35,455 nt of DNA from an uncultured bacterium (GTDB lineage Bacteria > Verrucomicrobiota > Kiritimatiellia > RFP12 > UBA1067): the NCBI GenBank assembly GCA_902773015.1, contig CACYCW010000054.1, positions 1 to 35,455 on the forward strand. Reading direction: 5' to 3'. The notes beneath the pieces were generated by a model. It worked only from the letters and a program-made list of their open reading frames with translations, was not told the DNA's origin and did no database searches. Below, piece after piece: positions 8,065 to 32,639 of the stretch; position 1 is the first letter of the stretch, and each line of letters begins with the position of its first letter. The translations under genes were made by a program, and so were the position numbers.

Positions 8065-8102
8065 CTCATCTTCTCCAGAGTTGGGGTTGACAGATGGATG
8101 GG

Positions 8103-8132
8103 ATTATATCACAAAATCCGACTGAATATCAA
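8103..8132 (-). promoter_or_regulatory. Sigma70-type promoter for the SGNH gene: -35 TTGATA, 18-bp spacer, extended -10 TGATATAAT
   Basis: Reverse complement of 8103-8111 is TGATATAAT, and of 8127-8132 is TTGATA. About 32 nt upstream of the ATG (8064). Confidence 0.6.
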
Positions 8133-8292
8133 ATCAACCGATTCGATGACCGCGACCTTCTCCTTCGCGCGGCTTTCAAGGGTGTTTCATCGTGTCGCTG
8201 TTGCTGTTCCCGCCATCACCAACCTTTTTGATCCACAGTGTCTGTACGGATACTGCTGCACGAATGGATAAGCTCGGGCACTTTTGCAGCCG

Positions 8293-8583
8293 TCAGTTTG
8301 CCTTATCGATTTTCGCGACGAGGTCATTCACCCAAGATATCGCCTCGTCAACAGTGGGCAGAACACCAAGACTTTCCTTTGCCGCAACATAGAGATCATC
8401 CCATCCTTCACCCTTGACAATGAGCGGCGGCCAAGTTTGCTTTTGCCTGTAAGCAAAGAGGCTGCGGCAAGTCGAAAGCGTCTTTGCCTAGTCGATTTTG
8501 GCGTTGTTTATGACAATCTGAAGATCGACGAAATCACGAGCGCGATTCGTGTTGGGAGTGCTGTTACACCATCCGAGGAGGAC
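8293..8583 (-). pseudogene. Possible gene remnant: minus-strand reading frame interrupted by an in-frame TAG (8488-8490)
   Basis: Hand translation gives '...VLLGWCNSTPNTNRARDFVDLQIVINNAKID*AKTLSTCRSLFAYRQKQTWPPLIVKGEGWDDLYVAAKESLGVLPTVDEAISWVNDLVAKIDKAN*'. The second half looks protein-like. No start codon or family recognised. Confidence 0.25.
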
Positions 8584-8589
8584 GACACA

Positions 8590-8763
8590 GTGAATGATAG
8601 CAAAATCGCCGCGAAACTGCGAGCGAACCTGAAGAAATTCTTGGGGGAACTCTCTCCCCATTTTTCCAAGCCGAAACTGGCGTTTCTCGGAGACATGATC
8701 TATGGATTACTGGCAGGAGTCGACGTGAAGCTTTCCGAAAGTTGCTCAAATATTCTCATCTGA
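8590..8763 (+). pseudogene. Possible N-terminal remnant of an IS4/IS701-like transposase (no catalytic domain present)
   Basis: 'LRANLKKFLGELSPHFSKPKLAFLGDMIYGLLAGVDVKLSE' resembles the N-terminal region of IS4/IS701-type transposases. The frame ends after about 55 aa and no DDE domain follows. Lies in the AT-richer island. Confidence 0.3.
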
Positions 8764-9262
8764 AGAACATGGCGGCCATAGTCCTGACCACAGCTCACTT
8801 CTCCATGACGTGGATCGGAAACTCGGACAAACGCGCAATCCTGGCCAAAAGCATTGCCGATGCCTCGCTGAGAATTCACAAACTGCCGGAATTCCATTTC
8901 TATGCAATTGCCGATGGAATCAGAATGCTGCTCTCCAGATGCGGACGGTGGAATGGAATCAACGATGATGACATAACCCCGGAGCATGATCTCTTCCGAT
9001 TCTTCGGCTGCGAATGCGACTGACTCGTACCGTTGTGTTCAGAGCCATAAAAACGCACATCGTCAAAATCACCCCAAATTTTCCTAAAAGTGGTTTTCCA
9101 CTTATCGCAACGTCAAAAAACGCATTCCACCCTTTGTTTATAGGGGTCCGCGCGATTTTGGCCGAAAAAATTGGGGAACCTCGAGGACGCGCATCATTGA
9201 CCGTCTCATAGCCGGGTTGTGTAAAGCCTAGCATATTCTTGCCGGAAAACATAGCACTAATC

Positions 9263-12280: not shown

Positions 12281-13066
12281 ATGACAGTCGTCGTCTGCAT
12301 CAAGCAAGTGCCGGACTCGACGAACGTCCGCATCGACCCGAGGACCAACACCCTCATGCGCGAGGGCGTCGAGTCGATCCTGAATCCATTCGACGCATTC
12401 GCGCTCGAGCAGGGGCTCGCGCTGAAGGACGCGCTCGGCGTGCGCCTCGTGGCGGTTTCGATGGGTCCGCCGCAGGCGGCCGCCGTCCTGCGCGAGGCGC
12501 TTGCCTGCGGTGCTGATGAGGCCTTTCTCGTTTCGTCTCGCGCCTTTGGCGGCGCGGACACGCTCGCGACGAGCTACACGCTTTCGCGGGCGATTCGCAC
12601 CGCCTGCGGCGGGCGCCCCGACCTCGTTCTCTTCGGCAAGCAGGCGATTGACGGCGATACGGCCCAGGTGGGGCCCGGCGTGAGCGAGTTCCTCGACCTG
12701 CCGCTCGTCACCTACGTGAAGGCGCTTTCCGTCACCCCGGACGCCGCCTTTCGCGTGACGACGTCGATGGACGACGGCGAGCACGTGATCGAGGGACGGC
12801 TGCCCGCCGTGATGACGGTTACCAAGGACGCCGCGCCCCCGCGCTTCGCCCCGCTCGCTGGCGCGATGCGCGCGGCAAAGGCGAAGATCACGGTTTTGGA
12901 CGAGAAGGCGATCGCGGCGGATCCCATTCGCATCGGCCTCACCGGCTCCCCGACCAAGGTGGTGACGATCTTCCCGCCGCCGGTGAAGGGCGGAGGTCGC
13001 AAGATCGAGTGGAGGGGTGATGCCGCCGCGCTCGCGCATGAGATTCGGGAGGCGATTCATGGCTGA
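12281..13066 (+). CDS. etfB: Electron transfer flavoprotein, beta subunit
   Basis: 'MTVVVCIKQVPDSTNVRIDPRTNTLMREGV...ILNPFDAFALE' is the canonical EtfB/FixA N-terminus. ATG at 12281 preferred over the upstream GTG. Confidence 0.9.
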   Translation: MTVVVCIKQVPDSTNVRIDPRTNTLMREGVESILNPFDAFALEQGLALKDALGVRLVAVSMGPPQAAAVLREALACGADEAFLVSSRAFGGADTLATSYTLSRAIRTACGGRPDLVLFGKQAIDGDTAQVGPGVSEFLDLPLVTYVKALSVTPDAAFRVTTSMDDGEHVIEGRLPAVMTVTKDAAPPRFAPLAGAMRAAKAKITVLDEKAIAADPIRIGLTGSPTKVVTIFPPPVKGGGRKIEWRGDAAALAHEIREAIHG

Positions 13067-14312
13067 TGCGCCGATTCTCATCGAACGGGCGAAGTGCACG
13101 GGCTGCGGCAAGTGCGTGAATGGCTGTGGCTTCGCTGCGCTTCGGCTTGTCGACGCGCCTGGGGCGAATCGCCTCGGCCGGCTCGCTGAGGTCGACCCGA
13201 GCGCCTGCAAGGCCTGCTCGGCCTGCGTGAAGGCGTGTCCGTTCCATGCGATCGCCGAGACGAAGACCGAGATCCGCGGCACCGAGGGGCTTGAGAGCTA
13301 TCATGACATCTGGGTGTTTTCCGAGCAGACTGCGGGGCGCATTGCCGAGGTCGCCTTCGAGCTGCTTGGCAAGGGACTCGCGCTCAAGGCTCAGCGGGGT
13401 GATGGCTGCCGTCTCTGCGCGGTGCTGCTGGGGAGCGGCGTCACCGCCGCGATGACCGATCCGCTTGTCGCCGCCGGGGCTGATGTCGTCTATGTCGTCG
13501 ACAGTCCCGCACTCGCCGACTATGATGCCGACGTCTACGTCGATGCAGTGGCGAAGCTCGTCGAGCGCCACCACCCCGAGGTGGTCCTTGCCGGTGCGAC
13601 GGCCATCGGCCGTGCGTTCTTCGCCAAGGTGGCGGTGCGCGTGCGCACCGGGCTCACGGCGGACTGCACGGCGCTGCGCATCGAGGAGACGCACAACAAG
13701 GATACCGGTGCGATGCAGATGCTCCTCCACCAGACGCGACCCGCGTTCGGCGGCAACATCATGGCGACCATCATGACGCCGAACCACCGTCCCCAGATGG
13801 CGACCGTGCGTCCGAAGGTCTTCAAGAGGAGGAACGGTTCGGAGAAGGGGCCGGGAGCGAAAGGGGAGGTCCTGCGCGAGGCGCTGGAGCTGATTGCGCC
13901 GCGCACTCGGCTTGTCGAGACCGTGCGTGACCCGGACGCGGTTGACATCGCCGCGGCCGCGGTGCTGGTCGCAGGCGGTCGCGGGCTGAAGGGCGCGGCG
14001 GCGTTCGGCCTTCTTCGCGAGTTGGCGGATCTTCTCGGCGGTGAGGTCGCGGCCTCTCGTGCGGCAGTGGACGCAGGCTGGGCGCCGCAGAGCCGCCAGG
14101 TCGGCCAGACCGGGCGCGCCGTCGTGCCGAAGCTCTACCTCGCCTTCGGCATCTCCGGCGCCATCCAGCATCTCGAGGGCATCCGCGGCGCCGACCGCGT
14201 CATTGCCGTCAACACCGACCCCAATGCGCCGATCTTCGGTGTCGCCGACCTCGGCATCGTCGGGGATGCGACCGAGATCATCCCCGCACTCATCAAGGAG
14301 ATCCGGAAATGA
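13059..14312 (+). CDS. etfA: Electron transfer flavoprotein, alpha subunit, with N-terminal 2x[4Fe-4S] ferredoxin domain
   Basis: Two CxxCxxCxxxCP-type motifs ('CTGCGKCVNGCGF', 'CKACSACVKACPF'), then an EtfA body and C-terminal FAD motif 'LYLAFGISGAIQHLEGI'. ATG overlaps the etfB stop (ATGGCTGA). Confidence 0.85.
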   Translation: MADAPILIERAKCTGCGKCVNGCGFAALRLVDAPGANRLGRLAEVDPSACKACSACVKACPFHAIAETKTEIRGTEGLESYHDIWVFSEQTAGRIAEVAFELLGKGLALKAQRGDGCRLCAVLLGSGVTAAMTDPLVAAGADVVYVVDSPALADYDADVYVDAVAKLVERHHPEVVLAGATAIGRAFFAKVAVRVRTGLTADCTALRIEETHNKDTGAMQMLLHQTRPAFGGNIMATIMTPNHRPQMATVRPKVFKRRNGSEKGPGAKGEVLREALELIAPRTRLVETVRDPDAVDIAAAAVLVAGGRGLKGAAAFGLLRELADLLGGEVAASRAAVDAGWAPQSRQVGQTGRAVVPKLYLAFGISGAIQHLEGIRGADRVIAVNTDPNAPIFGVADLGIVGDATEIIPALIKEIRK

Positions 14313-15910
14313 TCGAGACGGACGTTCTGATCGTGGGCGCGGGCCCGGCCGGTCTCGCCACTGCCATTTCGCTCAAGCGGTGCGGCTTTGCCGGTCGTGT
14401 CGTCGTCATCGACAAGGGATGCGCCGTCGGTAGTCACGTCCTCTCCGGCGCGGTCATGGATCCCGCTGGCTTCCGCGAACTGCTGACGGAGGAGGAGATC
14501 GCGAAGCTGCCCGTCGAGGCGCACGTCAATCGCGAGAGTTTCCGGTTCATCTTCGGCGCCAAGGCCTCGATGCCCATCCCGTGGGTGCCGCCGATGATGC
14601 AGGCGCACGGCTTTCCCGTCGGCTCGCTCACCAAGGTGGCTCGCTACCTCGCCTCGATCGCCGAGCGTCTCGGGGCGGAGGTCTACACCGGTTATGCGGT
14701 GACCGAGCTGATTGAGCGGGACGGCGTCGTCGTCGGGGCGCGCACGGGCGAGAAGGGGCTCGCGGCGGACGGACGACCCAAGTCGAACCATCTCGCGAGC
14801 GAGGAGATTGCCGCGAAGGTGACCGTGCTCGCCGAAGGCGGCGCAGGCGTTCTCACGGATCGTCTCGTGGAGGCGAAGGGCCTTGCCGGGAGACGTCCGC
14901 AGAGCTACGCGATTGCCGTCAAGGAGCTGATCGAACTGGCCGAGCCGGTCGCTGGCTCTGGCGGCACGATCATGCACACCTTCGGCTATCCGGTGAATCT
15001 GTGGACGTATGGCGGCGGTTTCGTCTATCACGTGAGCGACAGCCGCGTGATGGTCGGCTACGCGCTCGGACTCGACTACATAGACGCGACGCTCGATGTG
15101 CATGAGATCTTTCGTCGATACAAGGCGACGGGCGCGGTCGGGCGGCACATCAGCGGCGGCAAGGCCGTCGCCTATGGCGCGAAGGTGATTCCGGAAGGCG
15201 GTTTCTACGCGATGCCGCGTCCGCACGCTCTCGGCGCGCTGATCGTCGGCGACGGGGCGGGGCTGCTCGACGGGCTGCGCATCAAGGGCATCCACATCGC
15301 GATCGAGAGCGGCATCGCGGCGGCGGCGGCGATCGCCGAGACATCCGCCGACGCTGCGGCGGTCGGTGAACGTTATCACGCTCTTCTACGTGCGACGCGC
15401 GGCTATGCCGAGGTGAGACGCGTGAAGAACGTGCATGGCGGCTTCACCCGCGGCGCGCCGTTCGGCGTGGCGATGGCGGGTCTCGCCTGGGCGACCTTCG
15501 GGCGGTTTCCCTTCTGGATGTTCGGCCGTCGTCATCGTGACAGCGAGACGATGCGCGAGCTGCGGCCTGGTGCGCTCGAAGCGGCGGCCCGGTGCGCGGC
15601 GGATCCGGCCATCAGGGCCTTCCCCGATCGGCTGACCGACGTCTTCATGAGCGGCACGCTGCATGAGGAGGACCAGCCGTGCCATCTGCATCTCGTGGAT
15701 CCGGCTCGATGCGAGGCGTGCGAACGCCGCTTCGGGAGCCCCTGCACGCGCTTCTGCCCGGCGGAGGTCTATCGCCGCGACGAGGGCCGGCTGCGCATCG
15801 ACTTCTCGAACTGCCTTCACTGCAAGACCTGCCGCATCAAGTGTCCGCTCGAGAACGTCGAGTGGCGCTTCCCGCAGGGCGGTGACGGTCCGCGCTACAC
15901 GATGATGTGA
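14309..15910 (+). CDS. Electron transfer flavoprotein:quinone oxidoreductase (ETF-QO / FixC-FixX-like, fused 4Fe-4S domain)
   Basis: 'DVLIVGAGPAGLATA' FAD fold. C-terminal 'CPAEVY...CLHCKTCRIKCP...PQGGDGPRY' is typical of ETF-QO. ATGA overlap with etfA. Confidence 0.85.
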   Translation: MIETDVLIVGAGPAGLATAISLKRCGFAGRVVVIDKGCAVGSHVLSGAVMDPAGFRELLTEEEIAKLPVEAHVNRESFRFIFGAKASMPIPWVPPMMQAHGFPVGSLTKVARYLASIAERLGAEVYTGYAVTELIERDGVVVGARTGEKGLAADGRPKSNHLASEEIAAKVTVLAEGGAGVLTDRLVEAKGLAGRRPQSYAIAVKELIELAEPVAGSGGTIMHTFGYPVNLWTYGGGFVYHVSDSRVMVGYALGLDYIDATLDVHEIFRRYKATGAVGRHISGGKAVAYGAKVIPEGGFYAMPRPHALGALIVGDGAGLLDGLRIKGIHIAIESGIAAAAAIAETSADAAAVGERYHALLRATRGYAEVRRVKNVHGGFTRGAPFGVAMAGLAWATFGRFPFWMFGRRHRDSETMRELRPGALEAAARCAADPAIRAFPDRLTDVFMSGTLHEEDQPCHLHLVDPARCEACERRFGSPCTRFCPAEVYRRDEGRLRIDFSNCLHCKTCRIKCPLENVEWRFPQGGDGPRYTMM

Positions 15911-18826: not shown

Positions 18827-19408
18827 ATTATCGTAGGGCTGGGCAATCCGGGGGCGCAGTACGCGAACACGCCTCACTCGGTCGGTTTTGAGACCGTCGA
18901 TGCGATTGCAACTTCGATTGATGTCGCGTGGGAGGAGAAGCGGCAGTTCAAGTGCCTGATGGCGCGTGGCACTTTCGAGGGGCTGCCGGTGATGCTCGTC
19001 AAGCCCCAGACCTTCATGAACCTCTCGGGCGACTCCGTCGCGCCGGTCGTCCGCTACCACAACGCGACCGCTGCGGATCTGCTGGTCATCCAGGACGACA
19101 TCGACCTGCCGGTCGGGCGGTTGCGCATCCGCAAGAGCGGCTCCTGCGGCGGTCACAACGGCATTCGAAGCATCATCGAGCGGCTGGGCACGACTGCGTT
19201 TGCGCGTCTGAAGCTCGGTGTAGGAAAGGACCGCGCGAATGTGGTCGGGCACGTCCTCGGAAAGTTCGATCCCGAGACTCGGCAAACGATGGATCTCGTC
19301 ATCGCCGAGGCGGTGAAGGCCGCCGCGATGATCATGCGGGATGGCCCTGACGCCGCGATGAACGCCTTCAACTCGCTTGACGCCGCGAAGCCGCCCGAGA
19401 CGCGATGA
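18821..19408 (+). CDS. pth: Peptidyl-tRNA hydrolase (TTG start)
   Basis: Canonical N-terminus 'MKIIVGLGNPG..Y..T.H..G', then 'KPQTFMNLSG' and 'GGHNG'. No in-frame ATG would preserve this N-terminus, so TTG at 18821. Confidence 0.9.
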   Translation: MKIIVGLGNPGAQYANTPHSVGFETVDAIATSIDVAWEEKRQFKCLMARGTFEGLPVMLVKPQTFMNLSGDSVAPVVRYHNATAADLLVIQDDIDLPVGRLRIRKSGSCGGHNGIRSIIERLGTTAFARLKLGVGKDRANVVGHVLGKFDPETRQTMDLVIAEAVKAAAMIMRDGPDAAMNAFNSLDAAKPPETR

Positions 19409-20574
19409 GCGAACTGAACGAGACGCCGCGCGGGAGTCGCATTCACATCGCATTCTTTGGATTGAGGAATGCTGGCAAGTCGACGCTCGTCAATGCCTTC
19501 ACCGGACAGCAGGTCGCGATCGTGAGCGATGTCGCTGGAACGACGACCGATCCCGTCTCGAAGGCGATGGAGATCCTGCCGCTCGGTCCCTGCCTCATCA
19601 CCGACACGGCAGGCCTCGATGACACCGGTGCGCTCGGCCTGCAGCGCGTCGAGAAGTCGCTTGCCGTCCTCGCGACGACGGACATCGCCGTCTGGGTCGC
19701 CGCCGAGGCGGATGAAGCGTCCTCCTCGGAGCGTCGGCTCTTCGACGAGACGTGCCGTCGGCGTGGCGTGACCGTGATCGATTTCCGGCGCGGCGATTCC
19801 GTTGACGCGCTCAAGCGCCGGATTGCCGACGTGAAGCTGGTCGATCGTCAGTCTGGACTCCTCGAGGGGCTCGTGAAGAGGAACGATCGAATTCTATGCA
19901 TCGTGCCGATTGACGAGTCGGCGCCGAAGGGGCGGCTCATCCTGCCGCAGCAGCAGGTGATTCGCGAATGTCTCGACATCGGCGCGATCTGCACGGTATG
20001 CCAGCCGTCCGAACTGCTGGCAGCCGATCGATCGCAATCGACGGCGGTCGACGGACGTCGGCTCAAGCCGACCGACTTTGATCTCGCCATCACCGACTCG
20101 CAGGCCTTTCATCAGATCGCCCCTCTGTTCGAGCGGGGGCCCCGTCTCACGTCTTTCTCGATTCTCTTCGCGCGGCAGAAGGGCGATCTCGCTGAGTGCG
20201 TGAAGGGCCTTGAGGCACTTCGTGAGCTCAAGGACGGCGACATGGTGCTCATCGCCGAGGGCTGCACGCATCATCGGCAGTGCAATGACATCGGCACGGT
20301 GAAGATACCCAAGGCGCTCGGAAAGCTCACGGGGCGTGAACTCCGGTTCGTCTTCTCCAGCGGCAACACCTTCGAGATTCCCGCCAATTCGCGGGTTTCC
20401 CTTGTCGTCCACTGCGGAGGCTGCATGCTGACGCGGCGGGAGGTGCTGAGGCGCATCGCCCTTGCCCGGTCGGCGGGCGTGCCGATCGTGAACTACGGGC
20501 TGCTGCTCGCGGCCGCCAGTGGATTGCACATGAGTATCTCTTCCCCGGAGGTGACGGCACAGTCGGGTTCTTGA
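19405..20574 (+). CDS. hydF: [FeFe]-hydrogenase H-cluster maturation GTPase HydF
   Basis: 'RIHIAFFGLRNAGKSTLVNAFTGQQVAIVSDVAGTTTDPV' G-domain. C-terminal cluster motif C-T-H-x46-H-C-G-G-C (counted by hand). ATGA overlap with pth. Confidence 0.85.
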   Translation: MSELNETPRGSRIHIAFFGLRNAGKSTLVNAFTGQQVAIVSDVAGTTTDPVSKAMEILPLGPCLITDTAGLDDTGALGLQRVEKSLAVLATTDIAVWVAAEADEASSSERRLFDETCRRRGVTVIDFRRGDSVDALKRRIADVKLVDRQSGLLEGLVKRNDRILCIVPIDESAPKGRLILPQQQVIRECLDIGAICTVCQPSELLAADRSQSTAVDGRRLKPTDFDLAITDSQAFHQIAPLFERGPRLTSFSILFARQKGDLAECVKGLEALRELKDGDMVLIAEGCTHHRQCNDIGTVKIPKALGKLTGRELRFVFSSGNTFEIPANSRVSLVVHCGGCMLTRREVLRRIALARSAGVPIVNYGLLLAAASGLHMSISSPEVTAQSGS

Positions 20575-20596
20575 TTGGCTTGTGCGCTTGTGCGGA

Positions 20597-20625
20597 TTGC
20601 GCGCGGGGCGGGGATTTGCTATACT
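20597..20625 (+). promoter_or_regulatory. Promoter: -35 TTGCGC, 17-bp spacer, extended -10 TGCTATACT
   Basis: Read directly, 33 nt before the ATG at 20659. Confidence 0.5.
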
Positions 20626-20658
20626 ATACAAGTCAATATCGGGAGATTTTGCCAAGAC

Positions 20659-21564
20659 ATGAACGCAGAACAGTTGAATTCGAGGTTCGGGGCGCCAGGG
20701 CGAATCGTGTTTCGCGACGGCCTAGCGGGCTATCCGGAGGTGGTCATCGCCTGCCAGTATGGTTCGGCGGCGATTGCCCTCTTGGGGGCGAACGTCCTCT
20801 CGTACCGGCCGACCGGGCATTCGCCGGTCCTGTTCCGGCCCGAGAAGCGCGACCACAACCGCGGCGAGTCGTTCCATGGCGGCATTCCGGTGTGCTGGCC
20901 GCAGTTCGGCAACCGGTTCTCGAAGAACCTGCCGCAGCACGGCTTCGCGCGCAAGCTGGTCTTCGAGGTGCGCGGCACCGAGTATTCCGAGGAGAAGACC
21001 GAGGTGACGCTCGGACTTCGCTCCAATGACGAGACGCGCAAGCTTTGGCCGCATGATTTCGATCTTGAGTACCGGGTGTCCGTCACGATGAAGCTCAATC
21101 TTTCGTTCAAGACGTGCAACACGGGGACGGAGCCGTTCGACTTCAATTGCGGACTGCATCCGTACTTCCTGCTGCGCGAGCGCGATGCGGTGACGGTGCG
21201 GGGGCTCGCCGGCGACAGCTACTTCGACGGTGTCGCGGGCGCTCCGGCGGCGGAGCCGCTCGCGGGCGATTTGCCGCTCACGAGCGAGGTTGACCACATC
21301 TTCGATCTGCCGGAGGAGTCGAAGCACGAGTTCGCGATCATCGATCCCGGTCTTGATCGGGCCATCGCGCTTGTCTCGACGGGCAACCTGAAGACTGTCG
21401 TGTGGAATCCCGGGCAGCGGGGTTCCATCGCCGATCTTGGCCCCGATGACTGGAGACGCTTCGTGTGCGTCGAGCCGGTGAGCGAGTGGCCGGGCGGGCG
21501 CCCCCTTGCGCCGGGCGAGACCTACGAGCTCGTCGCGGCGATTCAGGCGACGCTGAAGGGTTGA
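20659..21564 (+). CDS. D-hexose-6-phosphate mutarotase-like protein (YeaD / aldose-1-epimerase superfamily)
   Basis: 'GGIPVCWPQFG', 'QHGFAR', 'LWPHDF', 'GLHPYF', 'VVWNPG...FVCVEP' follow the YeaD-type pattern. ATG at 20659 lies downstream of the promoter. Confidence 0.75.
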   Translation: MNAEQLNSRFGAPGRIVFRDGLAGYPEVVIACQYGSAAIALLGANVLSYRPTGHSPVLFRPEKRDHNRGESFHGGIPVCWPQFGNRFSKNLPQHGFARKLVFEVRGTEYSEEKTEVTLGLRSNDETRKLWPHDFDLEYRVSVTMKLNLSFKTCNTGTEPFDFNCGLHPYFLLRERDAVTVRGLAGDSYFDGVAGAPAAEPLAGDLPLTSEVDHIFDLPEESKHEFAIIDPGLDRAIALVSTGNLKTVVWNPGQRGSIADLGPDDWRRFVCVEPVSEWPGGRPLAPGETYELVAAIQATLKG

Positions 21565-21621: not shown

Positions 21622-23289
21622 ATGGAGATCAGCAAGGACCTGAAGACATGGTATGCGATTGCGTGCCCCACGACCGGGGTGCGGTTCGATCTGCGCACGC
21701 TGGAGTTGATGGACGCCGACCACGATGGGCGCGTGCGCACGCCGGAGGTCATTGCCGCGCTCGAGTACCTGAAGGGGAAGGGCGTCACGCTCGATGCGCT
21801 CGAGCATCCGTCCGAGGAGGACGCGCAGAAGCTCGAGGACGTCCTGCGCCGCCAGGCGGAGCTCGACCAGGCGGAGCCGTCCGATGCCGAGAAGGCGGCG
21901 ATGGCCGAGTGGGAGGCCGCGGGCAAGGCGCCGGACGTGGCCTTCCTCGGCGAGGCGACGGCGGCGGCTGAGGCGGCGCTCGCGGCTGTCGAGCCGGCGA
22001 TCGATGGCTTCTTCACACCGCCCGAGGACATGCCGCTCGTCACCGAGGAGCCGGACGTTGAGCTGCCGCTCAGGGCACACCTCAACCCGAAGTACCTCGA
22101 GGCGGTCCTCGAATTCGCCGAGAAGTGCGTGAAGCCGATTATCGGCGACGGCAAGGAGACCCTGACGCGCATGGAGTGGAAGGCCATAAAGGCGAAATTC
22201 GCCCCCTATCGAGCGTGGACCCAGGCGAAGCCGGTGATGAGTCCTGGCAGCAAGGACGAGCTCGTGGATGAGGAGCGCCTCCTGCGTTACAAGCTGCACC
22301 TCGGTGAGCTTCTCGAGAACTACGTCTCGATGAAGCGCCTCTACGACGAGGACTCCTATGCCATCTTCCAGACCGGCATCCTGCGCATCGACGGACGCGA
22401 GATGAACCTCTGCTTCCACGTCGACAGCGAGGCGGCGCACTCCGCGCTCGTCGGCAAGTCGAATTGCTGCGTCATCTACCTGAAGCTGACGCGTCCGGCC
22501 GAGAAGGCCGAGCGCCTCATCTGCGCGGTGGTAACGGCCGGCCGGGTGTGGACGCTCTATGTCGGCCGGAACGGCGTCTTCTACGATCGCGACGGTAAGG
22601 ACTGGGAGGCGGTGATCACGAAGGTGGTCGAGAGCCAGGTCTCCCTCATGGAGGCGTTCTGGGCGCCTTGGAAGAAGATCGGCGAGAGCATCGCCGGCCT
22701 TGTGAAGAAGTTCATCGGCGACAAGCAGACGAAGGCGATGACGGACGTGCAGAAGGGCGCCGAGTCGACGCAGGCCGGCGGCGCGGCGATGGCGAGCAGC
22801 GTGGCGGCGATCGGCATCGGCGTCGGCATGATGGGCGCGGCGGCGGCCTCGCTCATCACGGCGATCAAGGGTCTGCATCCGTGGTGGATGTTCTTCGTCG
22901 CGCTCGCGGCGGTCGTGCTGGTCGTATCGCTTCCGAGCATGATTCTCGCCTACTTCAAGCTCAGGCGGCGCGATCTCGGGGCGATCCTGAACGCGAGCGG
23001 CTGGGCGGTGAATCGCGAGATGCGCTTCTCGATGAAACGCGCGCTCGGCTTCACGAAATGCCCCCCGTGCCCCTGCGGCGCGTGGGCGAAATGGGCCGTC
23101 ACGGCGATTGGCCTTGTGGTGATCATCGCGTGGGCGATCTGCAGCTGCTGTTGCTGCCGCGAGAAGTCCGCGTGCGAACAGCGCACGTGCGAGAAGGCGA
23201 AGGCGTGCGAGACGGTGAAGGCCTGTGAGAAGGCGGCGCCTTCCGCCGACGCCGGCAACACGATTCAGGAAAAGAAGGAGGCGAAATGA
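21622..23289 (+). CDS. Uncharacterised 555-aa membrane protein: N-terminal canonical EF-hand loop, large soluble region, C-terminal TM helices and Cys-rich tail
   Basis: EF-hand loop 'DADHDGRVRTPE' (nt 21712-21747) fits DxDxDGxVxxxE. Hydrophobic segments 'AAIGIGVGMMGAAAASLITAI', 'WWMFFVALAAVVLVVSLPSMILAYF', 'WAVTAIGLVVIIAWAI'. Tail 'CSCCCCREKSACEQRTCEKAKACETVKACEK'. Stop overlaps the gspG start. Family not recognised. Confidence 0.7.
   Translation: MEISKDLKTWYAIACPTTGVRFDLRTLELMDADHDGRVRTPEVIAALEYLKGKGVTLDALEHPSEEDAQKLEDVLRRQAELDQAEPSDAEKAAMAEWEAAGKAPDVAFLGEATAAAEAALAAVEPAIDGFFTPPEDMPLVTEEPDVELPLRAHLNPKYLEAVLEFAEKCVKPIIGDGKETLTRMEWKAIKAKFAPYRAWTQAKPVMSPGSKDELVDEERLLRYKLHLGELLENYVSMKRLYDEDSYAIFQTGILRIDGREMNLCFHVDSEAAHSALVGKSNCCVIYLKLTRPAEKAERLICAVVTAGRVWTLYVGRNGVFYDRDGKDWEAVITKVVESQVSLMEAFWAPWKKIGESIAGLVKKFIGDKQTKAMTDVQKGAESTQAGGAAMASSVAAIGIGVGMMGAAAASLITAIKGLHPWWMFFVALAAVVLVVSLPSMILAYFKLRRRDLGAILNASGWAVNREMRFSMKRALGFTKCPPCPCGAWAKWAVTAIGLVVIIAWAICSCCCCREKSACEQRTCEKAKACETVKACEKAAPSADAGNTIQEKKEAK
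23172..23240 (+). repeat. In-frame tandem repeat (one 15-bp plus three 18-bp units) encoding C-E-x-x-K-A repeats
   Basis: tgcgaacagcgcacg / tgcgagaaggcgaaggcg / tgcgagacggtgaaggcc / tgtgagaaggcggcgcct, read directly. Confidence 0.7.
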
Positions 23290-23720
23290 TGAACATGAAG
23301 GAGAACGTCGTTCTGGAGGCCGCGCGGCGTGGCTTCACGCTCGTCGAGCTGCTGGTCGTGGTGGCCATTCTCGGCATTCTCGGCGCAGTCGCCGTCACCA
23401 ACGTGACGGGGCACATCGAGTCGACGCGCAAGACGGCGGCGAAGACGGCCGTGGACAACATCAAGGGCGCGGTGACGACCTGGATGCTGTCGAAGAAGAA
23501 GGCCACGCCGCCGAGCGACCTCAAGGTGCTGGTCGACGCGAGCGGTGATGAGGAGCCGGCGCTGGACGGCGGCGATGGCGCTCTCGTCGACCCGTGGGAC
23601 AGTGACTACAAGATCGAGGTCAAGGGCAAGCGCTTCGTCATCATGTCCGCAGGACCCGACGGCGAGTTCGGCACCGACGACGACATCCGCTCCGACAAGA
23701 TCGAGAAGTCGAAGAAGTGA
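23286..23720 (+). CDS. gspG: Type II secretion major pseudopilin GspG
   Basis: Prepilin signal '...RRG|FTLVELLVVVAILGIL' and C-terminal 'DPWDSDY...SAGPDGEFGTDDDI' GspG signature. SD AAGGAGG upstream. Confidence 0.85.
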   Translation: MMNMKENVVLEAARRGFTLVELLVVVAILGILGAVAVTNVTGHIESTRKTAAKTAVDNIKGAVTTWMLSKKKATPPSDLKVLVDASGDEEPALDGGDGALVDPWDSDYKIEVKGKRFVIMSAGPDGEFGTDDDIRSDKIEKSKK

Positions 23721-23721
23721 T

Positions 23722-24579
23722 GTGAGGCGCGGCTTCACCCTCATCGAGCTCCTGGTGATCGTCACCATCCTCGCGACGATGGTGACGATTGGCGTGGGGG
23801 TCATCAGCTCCGGGCAGGGCGCGGCGCGCGTGAAGGGCGCGGCGCGCGACATCTACGCGGCGATTCGTCATGCACGCTCGACAGCGCTCGTCACCGGGCA
23901 GCCAGCCATCATCACCTACTCGACCGTCGTCGAGGACGGGGAAGTGATGGCGAAGATCGAGGTGCATTCCGCAAAACTCTTCGAGACGCCGACCGACCTT
24001 TCCGCTGTCGAGACGCTGAGCGGAGAGCCCATCAAGGGCGCGGACCGGGAGCTTGTGCACATTGAGAAGGCGGGGGGCGATGCGGTCGACGACACGAAAC
24101 CCCTTGCGGAGGGGAAGAGTCCCGAGGATGGCTCTGCGGGCAAGGGCGAGACGATCGAGGAGATCCTCTTCGCGCCGATCAACGCGGAGATCGTCAAGGG
24201 CATGCGTCTGAAGGCCGTGAAGGGAGACGAACTCGAGTCGTCCGGCGCGACGCCGGTGCGCAAGTCGCGCATCTCCGTCTTCTCCAATGTCGACTACCTC
24301 ATCGGAAAATTCGAGAGCGCGAAGGCCGAGGAGAAGAAGAAGTCGGCGGAAGCCGCCGGGTCCGAGGGCAAGGCGGCCGGCGCGGCGGCCGGCAAGCCGT
24401 CGTCCGGCGAGGAGCCGGGTGAACCGCTCTCCGTCGTGTGGGAGACGAACGGACGCGTCGATCCGCACCAGGTGTGGGTCTATTCGGACGGGCAGAGGCC
24501 CGAGGATGGCCTGCTCATCAAGGTCGACCGCTTCGGCGCGGCCAAGGTGCTGCCGGGCGACGGGAGGGGGGAGGAGTGA
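23722..24579 (+). CDS. Minor pseudopilin, GspH-like (long, with acidic/Lys-Ala-rich insert)
   Basis: GTG start two nt after the gspG stop. 'RRGFTLIELLVIVTILATMV' followed by 'AARDIYAAIRHARSTAL' (GspH/FimT-type). Position after gspG. Confidence 0.65.
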   Translation: MRRGFTLIELLVIVTILATMVTIGVGVISSGQGAARVKGAARDIYAAIRHARSTALVTGQPAIITYSTVVEDGEVMAKIEVHSAKLFETPTDLSAVETLSGEPIKGADRELVHIEKAGGDAVDDTKPLAEGKSPEDGSAGKGETIEEILFAPINAEIVKGMRLKAVKGDELESSGATPVRKSRISVFSNVDYLIGKFESAKAEEKKKSAEAAGSEGKAAGAAAGKPSSGEEPGEPLSVVWETNGRVDPHQVWVYSDGQRPEDGLLIKVDRFGAAKVLPGDGRGEE

Positions 24580-25028
24580 AGAGTGGCTTCACGCTCCTGG
24601 AGGTACTGCTCGCGGCGATCATTCTCGGCGCGGGGCTCGCGGGCATTCTCGTCTCGATGTCCCAGTCGCAGCGCATGATGCTCTCGGCGACGGACTACGA
24701 GACCGCGCAGGAGGTTATGGATCTCGGAGAGATGGCCTATCCGCTCGAGAACGTGAAGGATCCCGATGAGCTTGACGTGCGGGAGACGCGCGCGACGGAG
24801 CTCTGGGACCTCATTTCCGAGGAACGTCTCACGAGCGCGCAGCGGGATAAGTTCCACGGCTACACCTGGGAGCGCGAGGCGCTCAACAAGGATGACCGAG
24901 AGGAGGACATCAAGCGGCTCGGCAACCTCTACACGGTGCGGATCACTGTGACCTGGGGTGATCGCGGCCGCGGCAGCGGCAAGAAGCAGCAGGAGAGCTA
25001 CGTCACCTTCTGGAGGAAGACCGAATGA
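24576..25028 (+). CDS. Minor pseudopilin, GspI-like
   Basis: GTGA overlap with the upstream stop. 'KSGFTLLEVLLAAIILGAGLAG'. Size (150 aa) and gene order. Confidence 0.6.
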   Translation: MKSGFTLLEVLLAAIILGAGLAGILVSMSQSQRMMLSATDYETAQEVMDLGEMAYPLENVKDPDELDVRETRATELWDLISEERLTSAQRDKFHGYTWEREALNKDDREEDIKRLGNLYTVRITVTWGDRGRGSGKKQQESYVTFWRKTE

Positions 25029-25867
25029 GAGGTCGTTCCGCCTTCACCCTCATCGAGCTGCTGCTCGCGACGATGCTCGTCGGCGTGCTGACGACGCTCA
25101 GCGTCCTCACCTTCCAGGCGGTGACACACGGCTGGCAGGTGTCGACCGATTATATGGACAAGATGCAGCGCACGGACTACGCGCTCAACCAGGTGATCAA
25201 CGGCCTGCGCAGCATGTACTACCCCCATGACGGCGAGCAGAACGAGAAGTACGGTTTCTGCCTCACCGACAACGGTGACGGCGAGAACCCGCGCACCTCC
25301 GACGTCATCGAGTGGTCGAAGACGGGGCCAGCGATCGTCGGCACGAAGAATACGATCGCCGACACGGTCCATCGCGTGCAGGTGATGGTGCTGGAGGAGG
25401 GCGACAACGACTACGAGGAGCCCATCCAGAAGACCGGGCTTTACGCTCGCCTGTGCGGCGATGCCGCGCTCATCCCGAAGGACGACAACGACGACACGGA
25501 CTATTCGTTCGGCAATGCGGAGCTCTACCAGCCGGTCCTGATCGCCGATGGCGTCGTCGGCCTGAACTGCAGGGTGTTGAAGAAGCAGGAAGACGCCGAG
25601 GATGGCGCGGTGCGCAACGCGAGCCAGAACGACCGCAAGAAATTCGAGGACGAGTTCGCCGAGTCGAACGCCGTGCCCTACAAGGTCGAACTCACGTTCT
25701 TCATCGAGAAGCCCGACGAGAGCTTCCGCTCGCAGACCGAGCGCGCGCCTATGGTGCGCATCATCCGCATCCCGATTCACGAGCAGTCCCTCGACGGCGC
25801 CGCGCCGCCCTCTGCCGATGGGAAGAAGAACAACGAGGAGAAGAAGGGGGTCAAGCGACGGAAATGA
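25025..25867 (+). CDS. Minor pseudopilin, GspJ-like
   Basis: ATGA overlap. 'RSAFTLIELLLATMLVGVL' prepilin-type N-terminus. Gene order. Lys-rich C-terminal tail. Confidence 0.6.
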   Translation: MRGRSAFTLIELLLATMLVGVLTTLSVLTFQAVTHGWQVSTDYMDKMQRTDYALNQVINGLRSMYYPHDGEQNEKYGFCLTDNGDGENPRTSDVIEWSKTGPAIVGTKNTIADTVHRVQVMVLEEGDNDYEEPIQKTGLYARLCGDAALIPKDDNDDTDYSFGNAELYQPVLIADGVVGLNCRVLKKQEDAEDGAVRNASQNDRKKFEDEFAESNAVPYKVELTFFIEKPDESFRSQTERAPMVRIIRIPIHEQSLDGAAPPSADGKKNNEEKKGVKRRK

Positions 25868-27183
25868 GACGGGGAAGCGTGCTCATCATGGTCCTCTGGA
25901 TCATCGCCGTCCTCGCTGTGATGGTGATGTCCTTCGCCTTCGAGGCCCACCAGCAGGCGGGCATCAACGTCTACATCCGCGAGCGCAACCGCGTCAACCG
26001 CCTCATCGAGCCCGGACGGATCCTCGGCGAGGTGGTGATGCTCGGGTTCAACGAAGCCAAGGAGTGGACTGAGGACGAGAAGGTCGAGGAACTCCTCGAG
26101 GATGACCGGTGGTATCGGGAGAAGCGTGCGCTCAAGTTCGACACGCGCTGCACGATCGGGCCGATCCTGCTTGACGAGGAGGACCCCGAATCCGGCACGG
26201 TGAAGGTCGAGATAGAGCTCGCCAACTCGGGCGCGGAGAACGGCATCAACATCAATGAGCTCTACTCCGGCGGCGACCAAAACTACGCGCTTCGCTGGCA
26301 GATGATCCTCAGGACCGCCGGCATCGACGAGGAACTCGAGGTCGAGGCTCCCGAATCGGACGGACGTGGAACGAAGCGCCACAACCTCATGAACCTGCTC
26401 ATTGCCTCGTGGAACGACTGGCGCGACGATGATGACAACGTCTCCCGCGGTCCGCTCAGCGAGAACGACCCGGAGGACGACGACGGCGCGGAGTCGAAGT
26501 GGTACGAGGAGTGGGATGAGAACATCGAGAAGGAGGCGCGAAGCAAGGAGGAGCGCAATGCCGTGGCCGAGGACCGTCGGCGGCCCCGCAACGGATCGAT
26601 CCCCGACATCAAGGAGCTCGGCTACGTGAGGGGATTCCGAGACTTCCCCTCGATCCTCACCGGCGGCCGGCTCTATGACGGCACGGCGCTTGCGGAAAAA
26701 TTCGACAAGGACAAGGATTCCGAGGACAATCCCCAGCTCACCGGCATCGCCAGCATCTTCGGCACCTCGGGGAGTTCCAAGGTCGTCATCAACCCGCAGA
26801 CGACAATCGATCAGCTCATGACAATTCCGGGCATCTTCCAGAACAGCGGCAATGTCGATGATGACCGCGAGGACAGCCTGGAACTGGCGCAGGCGATCCT
26901 CGACACGCTCAAGGTTAAGCCCGAGGACTATGACGTCGACGAGACACGTGACTGGTGGCCTTACAAGGACTGGGCGGACCTGTGCACGCGCGTTGAGGAC
27001 AACTACAGCGGCAATGTGGAGCTGGGCGAGGAGGCCCAGCAGTACATCGAGTGGCAGCCGAGTGAGACGAGTGTCTTCAAGATGAAGATCATCGGCGAGT
27101 CGATGGGCATGAAGCGTGAGGTCAGCTGCAAGTGCTACATCAAGGACAAGAAGGTCCGCTACCTTGAATGGAGGGAGGATTAG
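25864..27183 (+). CDS. Minor pseudopilin, GspK-like
   Basis: ATGA overlap. 'MRRGSVLIMVLWIIAVLAVMVMSF' (GspK-type N-terminus lacking Glu5). Size about 440 aa, highly acidic middle. The upstream 184 aa of the 25312 ORF overlap gspJ and are rejected. Confidence 0.65.
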   Translation: MRRGSVLIMVLWIIAVLAVMVMSFAFEAHQQAGINVYIRERNRVNRLIEPGRILGEVVMLGFNEAKEWTEDEKVEELLEDDRWYREKRALKFDTRCTIGPILLDEEDPESGTVKVEIELANSGAENGININELYSGGDQNYALRWQMILRTAGIDEELEVEAPESDGRGTKRHNLMNLLIASWNDWRDDDDNVSRGPLSENDPEDDDGAESKWYEEWDENIEKEARSKEERNAVAEDRRRPRNGSIPDIKELGYVRGFRDFPSILTGGRLYDGTALAEKFDKDKDSEDNPQLTGIASIFGTSGSSKVVINPQTTIDQLMTIPGIFQNSGNVDDDREDSLELAQAILDTLKVKPEDYDVDETRDWWPYKDWADLCTRVEDNYSGNVELGEEAQQYIEWQPSETSVFKMKIIGESMGMKREVSCKCYIKDKKVRYLEWRED

Positions 27184-30259: not shown

Positions 30260-30897
30260 TCCTGATGATTGACAACTACGATTCGTTCACCTACAACCTT
30301 GTGCAGGCGTTCCGTTCGCTCGGCGCCGAGATGGAGGTCGTGCGCAACGACGCGATCGACGTCGATGGCATCCGCGCGCTCCGGCCCGCCGCACTCGTCC
30401 TCTCGCCAGGTCCGGGCAATCCGGATTCGGCTGGCGTGACGCTCGCGGCGGCGAAGGCGTTCGCGGGGGTGGTGCCGATCTTCGGCGTCTGCCTCGGACA
30501 CCAGTCCGTGGCGCAGGCGTTCGGCGGACGCATTGTGCACGCGCAGCGGCTGATGCACGGCAAAACAAGCGCGATCACACACGACGGGAAGGGTGTCTTT
30601 TCGGGACTTTCCCAGGGGTTCGCGGCGATGCGCTACCATTCGCTCGCTGTCGAGCGCGCGACGCTGCCGGAGTGCTTCGAGATCTCGGCCGAGTCGGAGG
30701 ACGGGGAGATCATGGGACTCCGGCACAGGACGTTCCCGATCGAGACGGTGCAGTACCATCCCGAGTCGATCGGCACGCCCGAGGGTGAACGCCAGCTCGC
30801 CAACTTCTTGAAGATGGTCGGAGGCGATCGCGGGCAAGCGACAGCGGTCGACGGCAATCGTCAGCACTCGGCGGTGGCCGTGAAAGGAGTCCGATGA
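30256..30897 (+). CDS. trpG: Anthranilate synthase component II (glutamine amidotransferase)
   Basis: 'MILMIDNYDSFTYNLVQ', 'SPGPGNP', 'GVCLGHQ', 'VQYHPES'. ATGA overlap with trpE. The C-terminal ~20 aa are encoded by the TCGAC repeat. Confidence 0.95.
   Translation: MILMIDNYDSFTYNLVQAFRSLGAEMEVVRNDAIDVDGIRALRPAALVLSPGPGNPDSAGVTLAAAKAFAGVVPIFGVCLGHQSVAQAFGGRIVHAQRLMHGKTSAITHDGKGVFSGLSQGFAAMRYHSLAVERATLPECFEISAESEDGEIMGLRHRTFPIETVQYHPESIGTPEGERQLANFLKMVGGDRGQATAVDGNRQHSAVAVKGVR
30838..30880 (+). repeat. 10-bp-phased TCGACrGC repeat (4 units) at the trpG 3' end
   Basis: cgacagcgg/tcgacggcaa/tcgtcagcac/tcggcggtgg. Contains the CGACagcgGTCG mini-palindrome. Confidence 0.55.
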
Positions 30898-32639
30898 ACA
30901 CCCGTGAGATATTCGACCGCATCATGTCGGGCGAGATGCCGGCTGATGAGATTAAGACGGTGTTGACGCGCTACCATGAGCGCGGCATCACGCCCGACGA
31001 CCTGATGGCCGCGGCATCCGCGATGCGTGCGGCCGGCGTGAAGGTGCGTTGCGAGAATCCCGACGCGGTCGACATCGTCGGCACCGGCGGCGACTTCGCC
31101 GGCACTTTCAATGTGTCGACGGCGGCGGCCTTCATTGCGTCCGGCGCGGGCGTCACGATCGCCAAGCACGGCAACCGCGCCGCGACTTCGCGCTGCGGCA
31201 CGGCGGACGTCCTCGAGGCGCTCGGCTACGACCTCGGAACGTCGCCCGAGGCAATCGCCGAGGGGATCGCCCGAAACGGCATCGGTTTTCTCTTCGCGCG
31301 CAACCTGCACCCGGCGATGCGTCACGTCGCGTCGGTGCGCAAGGAACTAAAGTTCAAGACGATCTTCAACTACCTCGGGCCGCTCACAAATCCGGCGGGC
31401 GTGCGCCAGCACGTCATCGGCGTCGCGGACGCCTCGATGCTGCGCACCTTCGCCGAGGCGCTCGATAGGCTCGGCTCGCGCGGGGCGCTCATCGTCTGCG
31501 GCAAGGACGGCCTCGACGAGATCTCCACCGAGGGCCTCACCCGGTTCGCCATGCTGCGCGACGGCATTGTGAGCGAGGGCGAGATCGACATCGCGCGCCT
31601 CTGCGGCGAGAGCCATGGCGTCGAGGAGATCGCCGGGGGTGACCCGGAGGAGAACGCAATGATCCTGAAGGGCGTTCTCAACGGCGGACTGCGCGGTGCC
31701 TATCGCATGGCGGCCGTCGTCAACGCGGCGGCGGCGATCTGGGTCGCCGATCGCTCACGCAGTCTCAAGGAGGGGATTGCCGTGGCCGAGAAATCCATCG
31801 ACTCGGGGGCGGCGCTCGCGAAGCTTGAGGCGTTTCTCGGCTCGGGGGGACGCCGTGCGGACGGCGACATCCTCACCGAGCTCGCTTCGCGTCGTCGGGC
31901 GGACGCCGAAAGCGGGTCGCGCGTGAGGGACTTCGCCGCGGCGTTTCGTGGGCCGGGGCTTCACGTGATCGCCGAGCTTAAGAAGGCGAGTCCGTCGAAG
32001 GGGCTCATCCGCCCCGATTTCCGTCCGTCAGAACTCGCGGCGGAGCTCTCCGCCGCAGGCGCGGCGGCTCTCTCGGTGCTCGCCGAGCCGCACAAGTTCC
32101 TCGGCGGCGAGGAGAACGTGCGGCGGGCGCGGGAGGCGACGGAGCTGCCGATCCTCTTCAAGGACTTCGTGACTACCGAGTACCAGGTGCTGCGCGCGCG
32201 CGCCGCCGGGGCGGACGCGGTGCTGCTCATCGCGGCGGTTCTCGACGACGCGGCGCTCGCCAGACTGCTCGCCTGTGTGCGCGGATACGGCATGGAGGCC
32301 CTCGTCGAGACGCATACGGCTGAGGAAATCGACCGCGCGGTGCGGGTTGGCGCGCGGGTCATCGGCGTCAACTGCCGGGACCTTCGCACGTTCCGCACGG
32401 ATCCCTCGATCACGGCGGCACTTCTCGGTCGCATCCCCGCGGACCTCGTGAGGATCGCCGAGAGCGGCATTCGCGGTGCCGACGACCTAAAAGCGCTTCG
32501 CGCCGCCGGAGCCGACGGCTTTCTCATCGGCGAGACGCTCATGCGGGCTGAGCGCCCGGGCGAGGCTCTCGCGCGGCTTCGAGAGGCCGCAGATTCGACA
32601 GCTATCGACGGCGATCGACAGCAATCGAATCGACTGTGA
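30894..32639 (+). CDS. Fusion protein: anthranilate phosphoribosyltransferase (TrpD, aa ~1-335) plus indole-3-glycerol-phosphate synthase (TrpC, aa ~336-581)
   Basis: TrpD: 'VDIVGTGGD', 'NVSTAAAF', 'KHGNRAATSRCGTADVLEALG'. TrpC: 'VIAELKKASPSKGLI', 'LSVLAEPHKFLGG', 'PILFKDF', 'GADAVLLIAAVL', 'ESGI'. One uninterrupted ORF, ATGA overlap with trpG. Confidence 0.9.
   Translation: MNTREIFDRIMSGEMPADEIKTVLTRYHERGITPDDLMAAASAMRAAGVKVRCENPDAVDIVGTGGDFAGTFNVSTAAAFIASGAGVTIAKHGNRAATSRCGTADVLEALGYDLGTSPEAIAEGIARNGIGFLFARNLHPAMRHVASVRKELKFKTIFNYLGPLTNPAGVRQHVIGVADASMLRTFAEALDRLGSRGALIVCGKDGLDEISTEGLTRFAMLRDGIVSEGEIDIARLCGESHGVEEIAGGDPEENAMILKGVLNGGLRGAYRMAAVVNAAAAIWVADRSRSLKEGIAVAEKSIDSGAALAKLEAFLGSGGRRADGDILTELASRRRADAESGSRVRDFAAAFRGPGLHVIAELKKASPSKGLIRPDFRPSELAAELSAAGAAALSVLAEPHKFLGGEENVRRAREATELPILFKDFVTTEYQVLRARAAGADAVLLIAAVLDDAALARLLACVRGYGMEALVETHTAEEIDRAVRVGARVIGVNCRDLRTFRTDPSITAALLGRIPADLVRIAESGIRGADDLKALRAAGADGFLIGETLMRAERPGEALARLREAADSTAIDGDRQQSNRL

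Follow-up and report, generated by a model that had tools for sequence, protein, structure and literature searches.

In this study, an uncharacterised gene, here called gene X (positions 21622-23289, + strand; ATG start, 555 amino acids [aa]), was analysed in a 35,455-nucleotide (nt) stretch of DNA from an uncultured bacterium of the Kiritimatiellia (contig CACYCW010000054.1). This whole stretch is called the window below. Gene X lies directly upstream of gspG and four further pseudopilin genes of type II secretion system (T2SS) kind, and a preliminary description of the DNA had proposed that its product could be a lineage-specific assembly-platform or regulatory component of such a system. 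The analysis led to a different reading, which as a whole we regard as an even call: X is a cytoplasm-facing inner-membrane protein of a new family, predicted to respond to Ca2+, with a basic role independent of type II secretion and a secondary pairing with gspG. X probably belongs neither to the core of the T2SS nor to its assembly platform. In the clade in which the two genes are paired, X is probably co-transcribed with gspG, which would tie its expression to pseudopilin production.

A search with X returned more than 1,240 homologues (65–100% identity among the matches listed), none of which had a Pfam domain or was informatively named. In species-representative genomes, 583 X loci were confirmed by scanning, and the matches extended to Rhodoferax, Sulfuritalea, Rhodocyclaceae, Ferrovaceae and Limisphaerales, with 31–39% identity over essentially the full length. 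The closest homologues place the window in the Kiritimatiellae. In an exhaustive profile search over 1.84 billion representatives, with clusters formed at 50% identity, the family comprised 1,995 clusters at E ≤ 1e-3, of which 707 reached E ≤ 1e-30; its members were mostly of 700–780 residues and came from Kiritimatiellae, Verrucomicrobia and Betaproteobacteria. Cultured carriers were Rhodoferax, Cerasicoccus and Ruficoccus, among them R. antarcticus, C. arenae and R. amylovorans. A family of this size, spread over bacteria of the Planctomycetes-Verrucomicrobia-Chlamydiae (PVC) group and Betaproteobacteria, is not the lineage-specific one that had been supposed. Two members from Cerasicoccus/Ruficoccus are named "EF-hand domain-containing protein" in UniRef and the remaining names are "hypothetical". 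When X and two distant relatives were compared with Pfam, NCBIfam, PADLOC and PHROGs, only sub-threshold EF-hand and holin matches were obtained, and no confident match to an unrelated characterised family emerged from Pfam, NCBIfam, the PDB or Foldseek. No description of the family was found in the literature searched. The family is undescribed in Pfam, NCBIfam, the PDB and that literature, and it joins a known motif to an unknown membrane module.

Gene neighbourhoods were compared by tblastn with the window proteins GspG, GspH, GspI, GspJ, GspK, epimerase and FolD against 82 X loci; a crude open reading frame (ORF) caller reported antisense ORFs as well in this GC-rich DNA, and the tblastn results were relied on instead. 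Co-occurrence with gspG-gspK, on which the preliminary description had laid weight, was not a property of the family, homologues being found mostly away from pseudopilin or T2SS genes. An adjacent pilin gene was present at none of the 41 distant loci, where the gene typically stands alone between unrelated genes, and was lacking at approximately 33 of the 48 informative Kiritimatiellae-type loci, the other 15 or so having a pseudopilin gene adjacent. Genes downstream of the unlinked Kiritimatiellae genes included gyrB, a GH43 gene, and an amidophosphoribosyltransferase-like or glutamyl-tRNA synthetase-like gene; GH43 follows a homologue 80% identical to the window X, and gyrB one that is 67% identical. 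An all-against-all comparison of neighbours at the 82 loci yielded no gene shared across the family, and the idea of a conserved partner gene was given up. As the gene is mostly stand-alone and has no family-wide association with the T2SS, the basic function of X appears to be independent of type II secretion. No Pfam or NCBIfam match of X to T2SSC, T2SSF, T2SSL or T2SSM was obtained at E ≤ 0.1, and no T2SS or type IV pilus protein was among the listed Foldseek matches of the X model in the PDB. Lacking both similarity to GspC, GspF, GspL or GspM in sequence or fold and family-wide linkage, X does not fit the assembly-platform role proposed for it.

At two Verrucomicrobia loci a prepilin-motif gene was found approximately 4 kb from an X homologue, on the opposite strand (L087, 12207-13025, - strand; L088, 727-1581, - strand). 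Verrucomicrobia hold very many prepilin-motif genes, and this nearness is probably due to chance.

The EF-hand loop of X, DADHDGRVRTPE (residues 31-42; 21712-21747, + strand), agrees fully with the EF-hand pattern, in which positions 1, 3 and 5 are D/N/S, position 6 is Gly, position 8 is I/L/V and position 12 is Glu/Asp. For this pattern a rough estimate from typical amino-acid frequencies gave approximately 3e-4 chance matches per 555 aa. Residues at the loop positions were counted in 145 family sequences with a mean identity to X of approximately 33%. Asp was found at position 1 in 144 of the 145, at position 3 in 131 (with Asn in 11 more) and at position 5 in 138; position 6 was Gly in 134, position 8 was I, V or L in all 145, position 9 was Arg in 135, and position 12 was Glu in 128 and Asp in 16. 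The loop noticed earlier is thus nearly invariant in the family and, by its pattern, its conservation and the helix-loop-helix in which it is modelled, genuine. Near-invariant liganding positions across phyla imply strong selection on the predicted metal binding. In PDB sequence searches with profiles of 21 and 145 sequences only EF-hand loops were matched, the 145-sequence family profile finding EF-hand proteins and nothing else (best 2aao, E 2.9e-4). Among 60 members compared with Pfam, recurrent weak matches were to EF-hand models only and occurred in 22 (lowest E 1.1e-5, EF-hand_7); the EF-hand_7 pair model was matched by 16 of the 60. A second loop, NGDG, is present in 111 of the 145 aligned members and absent from the window X, which is a short form without approximately 25 N-terminal residues and the NGDG-bearing segment. 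Binding of Ca2+ by the EF-hand of X is predicted as part of the joint reading given above.

The structure of X was modelled with AlphaFold (AF2). With 21 close sequences as input the mean predicted local distance difference test score (pLDDT) was 50.7; with 124 diverged representatives added (145 sequences) it rose to 89.1, with a predicted template-modelling score (pTM) of 0.76. In this model the EF-hand forms a helix-loop-helix at residues 24-52, composed of a helix at 24-30, a short strand at 37-39 and a helix at 40-52, with pLDDT 97-98. It is followed by an all-alpha region at residues 57-240 (21790-22341, + strand; DSSP assignment), which is acidic at its start, lacks the NGDG loop and is predicted to be cytoplasmic. 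A beta-rich core of eight strands at 245-336 (22354-22629, + strand) carries the conserved blocks FQxGxLxxDxR and VGRNGxFYDRxGxDWxA, and a connecting helix of approximately 40 residues at 342-382 (22645-22767, + strand) begins with conserved SLxEAFWxPxKK. In the search over representatives, conservation was highest at profile positions 205-485, which take in the beta-rich core. Hydrophobic segments were found at 388-415 (Gly/Ala-rich), 417-448 and 484-514. The first two correspond to a transmembrane (TM) hairpin of helices 388-416 and 421-448 (22783-22965, + strand; 394-416 and 421-448 in the model), in whose first helix (TM1) the small-residue pattern A395, G398, G402 and G405 is conserved, with A395, A396, G398 and G402 invariant in alignment A2. 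A basic juxtamembrane segment at 446-483 (22957-23070, + strand) follows, with the fourth conserved block, the invariant motif KLRxRxLGxxLxAxGWAxN, and nine Lys/Arg residues, and is predicted to be cytoplasmic.

The C-terminus consists of a third TM helix (TM3; approximately 486-512, extending to 519 in the model) and a Cys-rich tail (23077-23241, + strand), a part that is variable and dispensable by hydropathy and orthologue comparison. The hydrophobic segments of the preliminary description and its CSCCCC (507-512) were present as stated; of the four CE repeats at 518-540 (starting at 518, 523, 529 and 535), the exact form C-E-x-x-K-A occurs in two only. Most family members have the third TM helix, while the Cys-rich tail is not conserved. 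Orthologues of 485-487 aa stop after the basic juxtamembrane motif and have neither the third TM helix nor the tail, as in L003 (8001-9464, P0051), where the full block of neighbouring genes is present. A role of the tail as a metal site or as a T2SS-specific feature was rejected on these grounds.

X has no signal peptide, an N-terminal domain of 385 residues and nine Lys/Arg residues after TM2. From the missing signal peptide and these basic residues, the EF-hand and the core are inferred to be cytoplasmic; nearly all of X is predicted to face the cytoplasm, with the IKGLHP loop and, where present, the C-terminal tail outside. Foldseek comparison of the model with the PDB and BFVD gave nothing at E ≤ 1e-3, and the best query-normalised TM-score was approximately 0.11-0.12. 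Kir-channel-like and XaxB-like folds appeared among these hits together with Tudor domains and were set aside as noise (probability ≤ 0.44 beyond approximately 100 columns, TM-score ≤ 0.12). The region of approximately 300 aa that had been left without a family remained so after these searches and those of the profile libraries; judged from the model, the overall fold of X has no solved relative and, the EF-hand aside, no recognisable one.

A mechanism can be proposed from this architecture. Ca2+ would bind the EF-hand, and its occupancy would reposition the cytoplasmic alpha/beta body. This movement may be relayed through the long helix to the TM hairpin rich in small residues, which probably packs into an oligomer, and the oligomer would control a membrane activity, either the passage of an ion or solute or the binding of a partner.

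Several points weigh against this reading. The window X gave no Pfam EF-hand match at E ≤ 0.1. Arg at position 9 and Pro at position 11 of the loop are both atypical for canonical EF-hands. Unpaired EF-hands are uncommon, and the window X, being a short form, no longer has the NGDG loop as a partner for its first one. The idea of a channel or oligomer draws on just two things, the small-residue pattern of TM1 and the sub-threshold matches to a holin family. Finally, the retention of X next to gspG through rearrangement of both flanks, described below, argues for more than passive co-expression.

In the window, the TGA of X (23287-23289) overlaps the gspG ATG at 23286 as ATGA (23286-23289), and a Shine-Dalgarno sequence, AAGGAGG, lies inside the 3' end of X directly before this ATG. 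The gspG stop at 23720 is separated by 1 nt from the gspH GTG at 23722; gspH and gspI overlap by GTGA at 24576, gspI and gspJ by ATGA at 25025, and gspJ and gspK by ATGA at 25864. The ORF ending within the gspG start and the chain of five prepilin-type genes joined by overlaps or a 1-nt gap, both reported previously, were confirmed by direct reading of the sequence. The block is preceded by an aldose 1-epimerase gene (20575-21564, + strand; Pfam E 4.5e-38) and closed by folD, identified by Pfam, which overlaps or abuts gspK (27168/27192-28088, + strand). Four-base overlaps were also found at lpxI/lpxB, lpxB/histidine kinase, pth/hydF and trpE/trpG/trpDC in this window of approximately 64% guanine plus cytosine (GC). 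Since overlaps join unrelated genes too, and folD sits as tightly on gspK, tight packing is not evidence of function. Where relatives share the block, X and gspG lie from 1 nt (L086) to 48 nt apart, with gaps of 44-48 nt at L091 and L093; translational coupling is therefore not itself conserved. As functional evidence it was dropped as non-specific.

The full block epimerase-X-gspG-gspH-gspI-gspJ-gspK-folD was found in three genomes by tblastn among the 82 loci and in three more by contig look-up (L003, L034, L040, L086, L091 and L093). In every one of the six the epimerase gene is kept upstream and folD at the end, and folD serves as a control, an unrelated gene equally tightly linked to the secretion operon. 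The pair X-gspG was present in 15 sampled loci, the window counted; gspH-gspK were not detected next to it at eight Kiritimatiellae loci, at one of which, L012, the contig ends too early to judge. In a neighbour-joining tree of X, 14 of the 15 gspG-linked loci fell into one clade together with a single unlinked member, and L037 fell outside. Because the linked genes are nearly all in one clade, the linkage arose essentially once. Seven of the X-gspG loci had enough sequence to compare, and their flanks were unrelated, both sides differing between species, which makes the pair, not the operon, the conserved unit. That the pair was kept while its flanks changed gives moderate support to selected co-expression within the clade, and a clade-specific functional link between X and gspG is possible.

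The aldose epimerase gene and gspG are neighbours of X with about equal frequency. The epimerase gene is found upstream of X in the group to which the window belongs, whereas in seven more diverged Kiritimatiellae (L026, L039, L041, L042, L047, L048 and L049) it comes directly after X. A second epimerase paralogue is present in the window at 427-1818.

These data bear on an alternative that we consider rather unlikely, namely that X was recruited in this clade as a dedicated pseudopilus accessory, acting as a Ca2+-dependent regulator, as a membrane holdase that keeps the hydrophobic N-terminal segment of GspG until assembly, or as a stand-in for an absent platform protein of the GspL/M/C type. 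The 15 paired loci, with both flanks differing in seven, would be expected if X served the pseudopilus, as would the single clade, in which one sampled member would have lost the pair and from which L037 alone stands apart. The tight junctions in the window (ATGA) and L086 (1-nt gap) also agree with recruitment. GspG-type pseudopilins require Ca2+, and this GspG keeps the GPDGxxGTDDDI loop, while gspC, gspL and gspM were not found in the window to fill the place that X might take. Against recruitment, linkage to pilins is missing in the overwhelming majority of the family, the 80%-identical homologue included, and no sequence feature separates linked from unlinked X proteins, the Cys tail and third TM helix being absent from an X in a full operon. 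X does not resemble GspC, GspF, GspL or GspM in sequence or fold, the 44-48-nt gaps in L091 and L093 mean that coupling is not conserved, and folD and the epimerase gene are equally conserved in the block. Moreover, since the Ca2+ site of GspG is periplasmic and the EF-hand of X is predicted to be cytoplasmic, the latter could not serve the former directly.

The opposite alternative, which we consider unlikely, is that the adjacency of X and gspG is inherited synteny without function and that the DxDxDG loop is a structural metal site or a non-binding relic and no Ca2+ sensor, the real activity residing in the beta-rich core and having nothing to do with calcium signalling. A linkage that traces to essentially one ancestral event is compatible with this, and unrelated genes overlap in the same manner throughout the window. 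No terminator-like site was found on the + strand between 20400 and 28300, and many housekeeping genes may therefore share transcripts. DxDxDG loops occur in many non-sensor contexts, and conservation in the family is highest in the core and TM region rather than at the N-terminus. Two observations oppose this explanation: every liganding position of the loop is near-invariant across phyla, which implies selection on metal binding, and the pair has persisted despite replacement of both its flanks, which is not expected of neutral synteny over 50-79% protein identity. A more far-reaching version of our own reading, in which the family consists of widespread cytoplasmic Ca2+ sensors on a new fold, the EF-hand gates a glycine-zipper hairpin oligomer, and a connection to gspG in one clade puts the assembly of the pseudopilus or secretion under the control of cytoplasmic Ca2+, seems improbable.

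The gene at 23286-23720 (+ strand, 144 aa) is, by sequence, a bona fide gspG, with a prepilin motif, a T2SSG domain and a C-terminal Ca2+ loop. Its product scored above the Pfam cut-offs for N_methyl (33.5 bits) and T2SSG (34 bits) and aligned over its full length with Klebsiella PulG (5wda, E 1.3e-11), the C-terminal GPDGEFGTDDDI loop included; the NCBIfam equivalog was matched at 57 bits, under the cut-off of 88.85. The next three genes (all + strand) have the prepilin N-terminal motif and weak family matches: gspH-like at 23722-24579 (N_methyl; GspH E 1.6e-8, below cut-off), gspI-like at 24576-25028 (XpsI/GspI) and gspJ-like at 25025-25867 (GspJ). The last, gspK-like at 25864-27183 (+ strand), was assigned by position, size and a GspK-like N-terminus only, this being a match of residues 187-218 of a longer ORF to NF037980 (E 0.058); profile and PDB searches gave no GspK similarity past the N-terminal helix, and no PDB sequence match was obtained for the product. 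The pseudopilin operon in itself is ordinary.

Beyond the pseudopilin genes, no T2SS gene was found among the large window ORFs scanned except a C-terminal fragment of gspE at 2-646, in agreement with the earlier remark that gspC, gspD, gspF, gspL, gspM and gspO are absent. This fragment is the 3' part of a gene that is complete in L083 (414-2105, 563 aa, MshEN and T2SSE domains). The gspE gene stands alone, followed by epimerase, lpxI and lpxB genes, with neither gspF nor gspD nearby, which indicates that the T2SS genes of the organism are scattered.

Other features of the window were as follows. The 1-kb bin 8001-9000 has approximately 50% GC, against approximately 64% elsewhere, and includes part of a gap (8065-9240) between a GDSL lipase gene and a DoxX-fusion gene. 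The gap contained only short ORFs without family matches, and scans for Rfam families and tRNAs were empty there as in the whole window. A stand-alone hydF gene, for the [FeFe]-hydrogenase maturase GTPase, was located at 19405-20574, overlapping pth by 4 nt and directly before the epimerase ORF that precedes X; hydE, hydG and hydrogenase genes were not found in the window. Two genes at 13017-15910 have a FixB/FixC-type arrangement: the first encodes the alpha subunit of an electron transfer flavoprotein (ETF) that carries a double [4Fe-4S] ferredoxin domain at its N-terminus, and the second is ETF-quinone oxidoreductase-like. A fused trpD-trpC gene at 30894-32639 (Glycos_transf_3 plus indole-3-glycerol phosphate synthase, 581 aa) lies in a trpE-trpG-trpDC-trpB run with 4-nt overlaps.

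Few cytoplasmic Ca2+ sensors have been identified in bacterial Ca2+ signalling. With approximately 2,000 clusters, liganding residues under selection, a confidently predicted fold and cultured carriers, the X family offers a concrete and testable candidate. The secretion machinery of PVC bacteria is poorly understood, and the clade-restricted pairing of X with gspG provides a natural experiment for asking if type II secretion in these bacteria is linked to Ca2+ sensing. Should the pairing be synteny only, the analysis corrects an attractive over-reading of overlapping genes.

Compared with known systems, X is like GspC, GspF, GspL and GspM in being an inner-membrane protein encoded, in this clade, directly upstream of pseudopilin genes. 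It differs from them in having no sizeable periplasmic domain, and most members of its family are not near any T2SS gene. With glycine-zipper pore formers, including the holins of PF07332, it shares a Gly/Ala-rich TM helix (G398xxxG402xxG405) and a two-helix hairpin. Sub-threshold matches to PF07332 were obtained for five of 60 family members (13.7 bits versus a gathering threshold of 28.4). These matches are explicable by TM composition, and X, unlike holins, has a predicted cytoplasmic domain of 385 residues and no phage context.

In its loop X resembles the EF-hand superfamily (calmodulin-like; Pfam EF-hand_1/5/6/7). X has a 12-residue loop between two helices; positions 1, 3, 5 and 12 of the loop are those of the ligands, position 6 is Gly and position 8 is hydrophobic. 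Long members of its family have the second, NGDG loop and score weakly on the EF-hand pair model. Unlike in that superfamily, the loop is N-terminal in a membrane protein of 555-780 aa, the other 85-90% of which has no known relative, and the window X, with its single loop, Arg 9 and Pro 11, falls below every Pfam threshold. Pseudomonas aeruginosa EfhP, which is small and thought to face the periplasm, and eukaryotic LETM1 and STIM1 have to our knowledge no detectable homology to X outside the loop, and their domain order, topology and TM module differ. What they have in common with X is a membrane-tethered EF-hand, through which Ca2+ occupancy could be read at the membrane.

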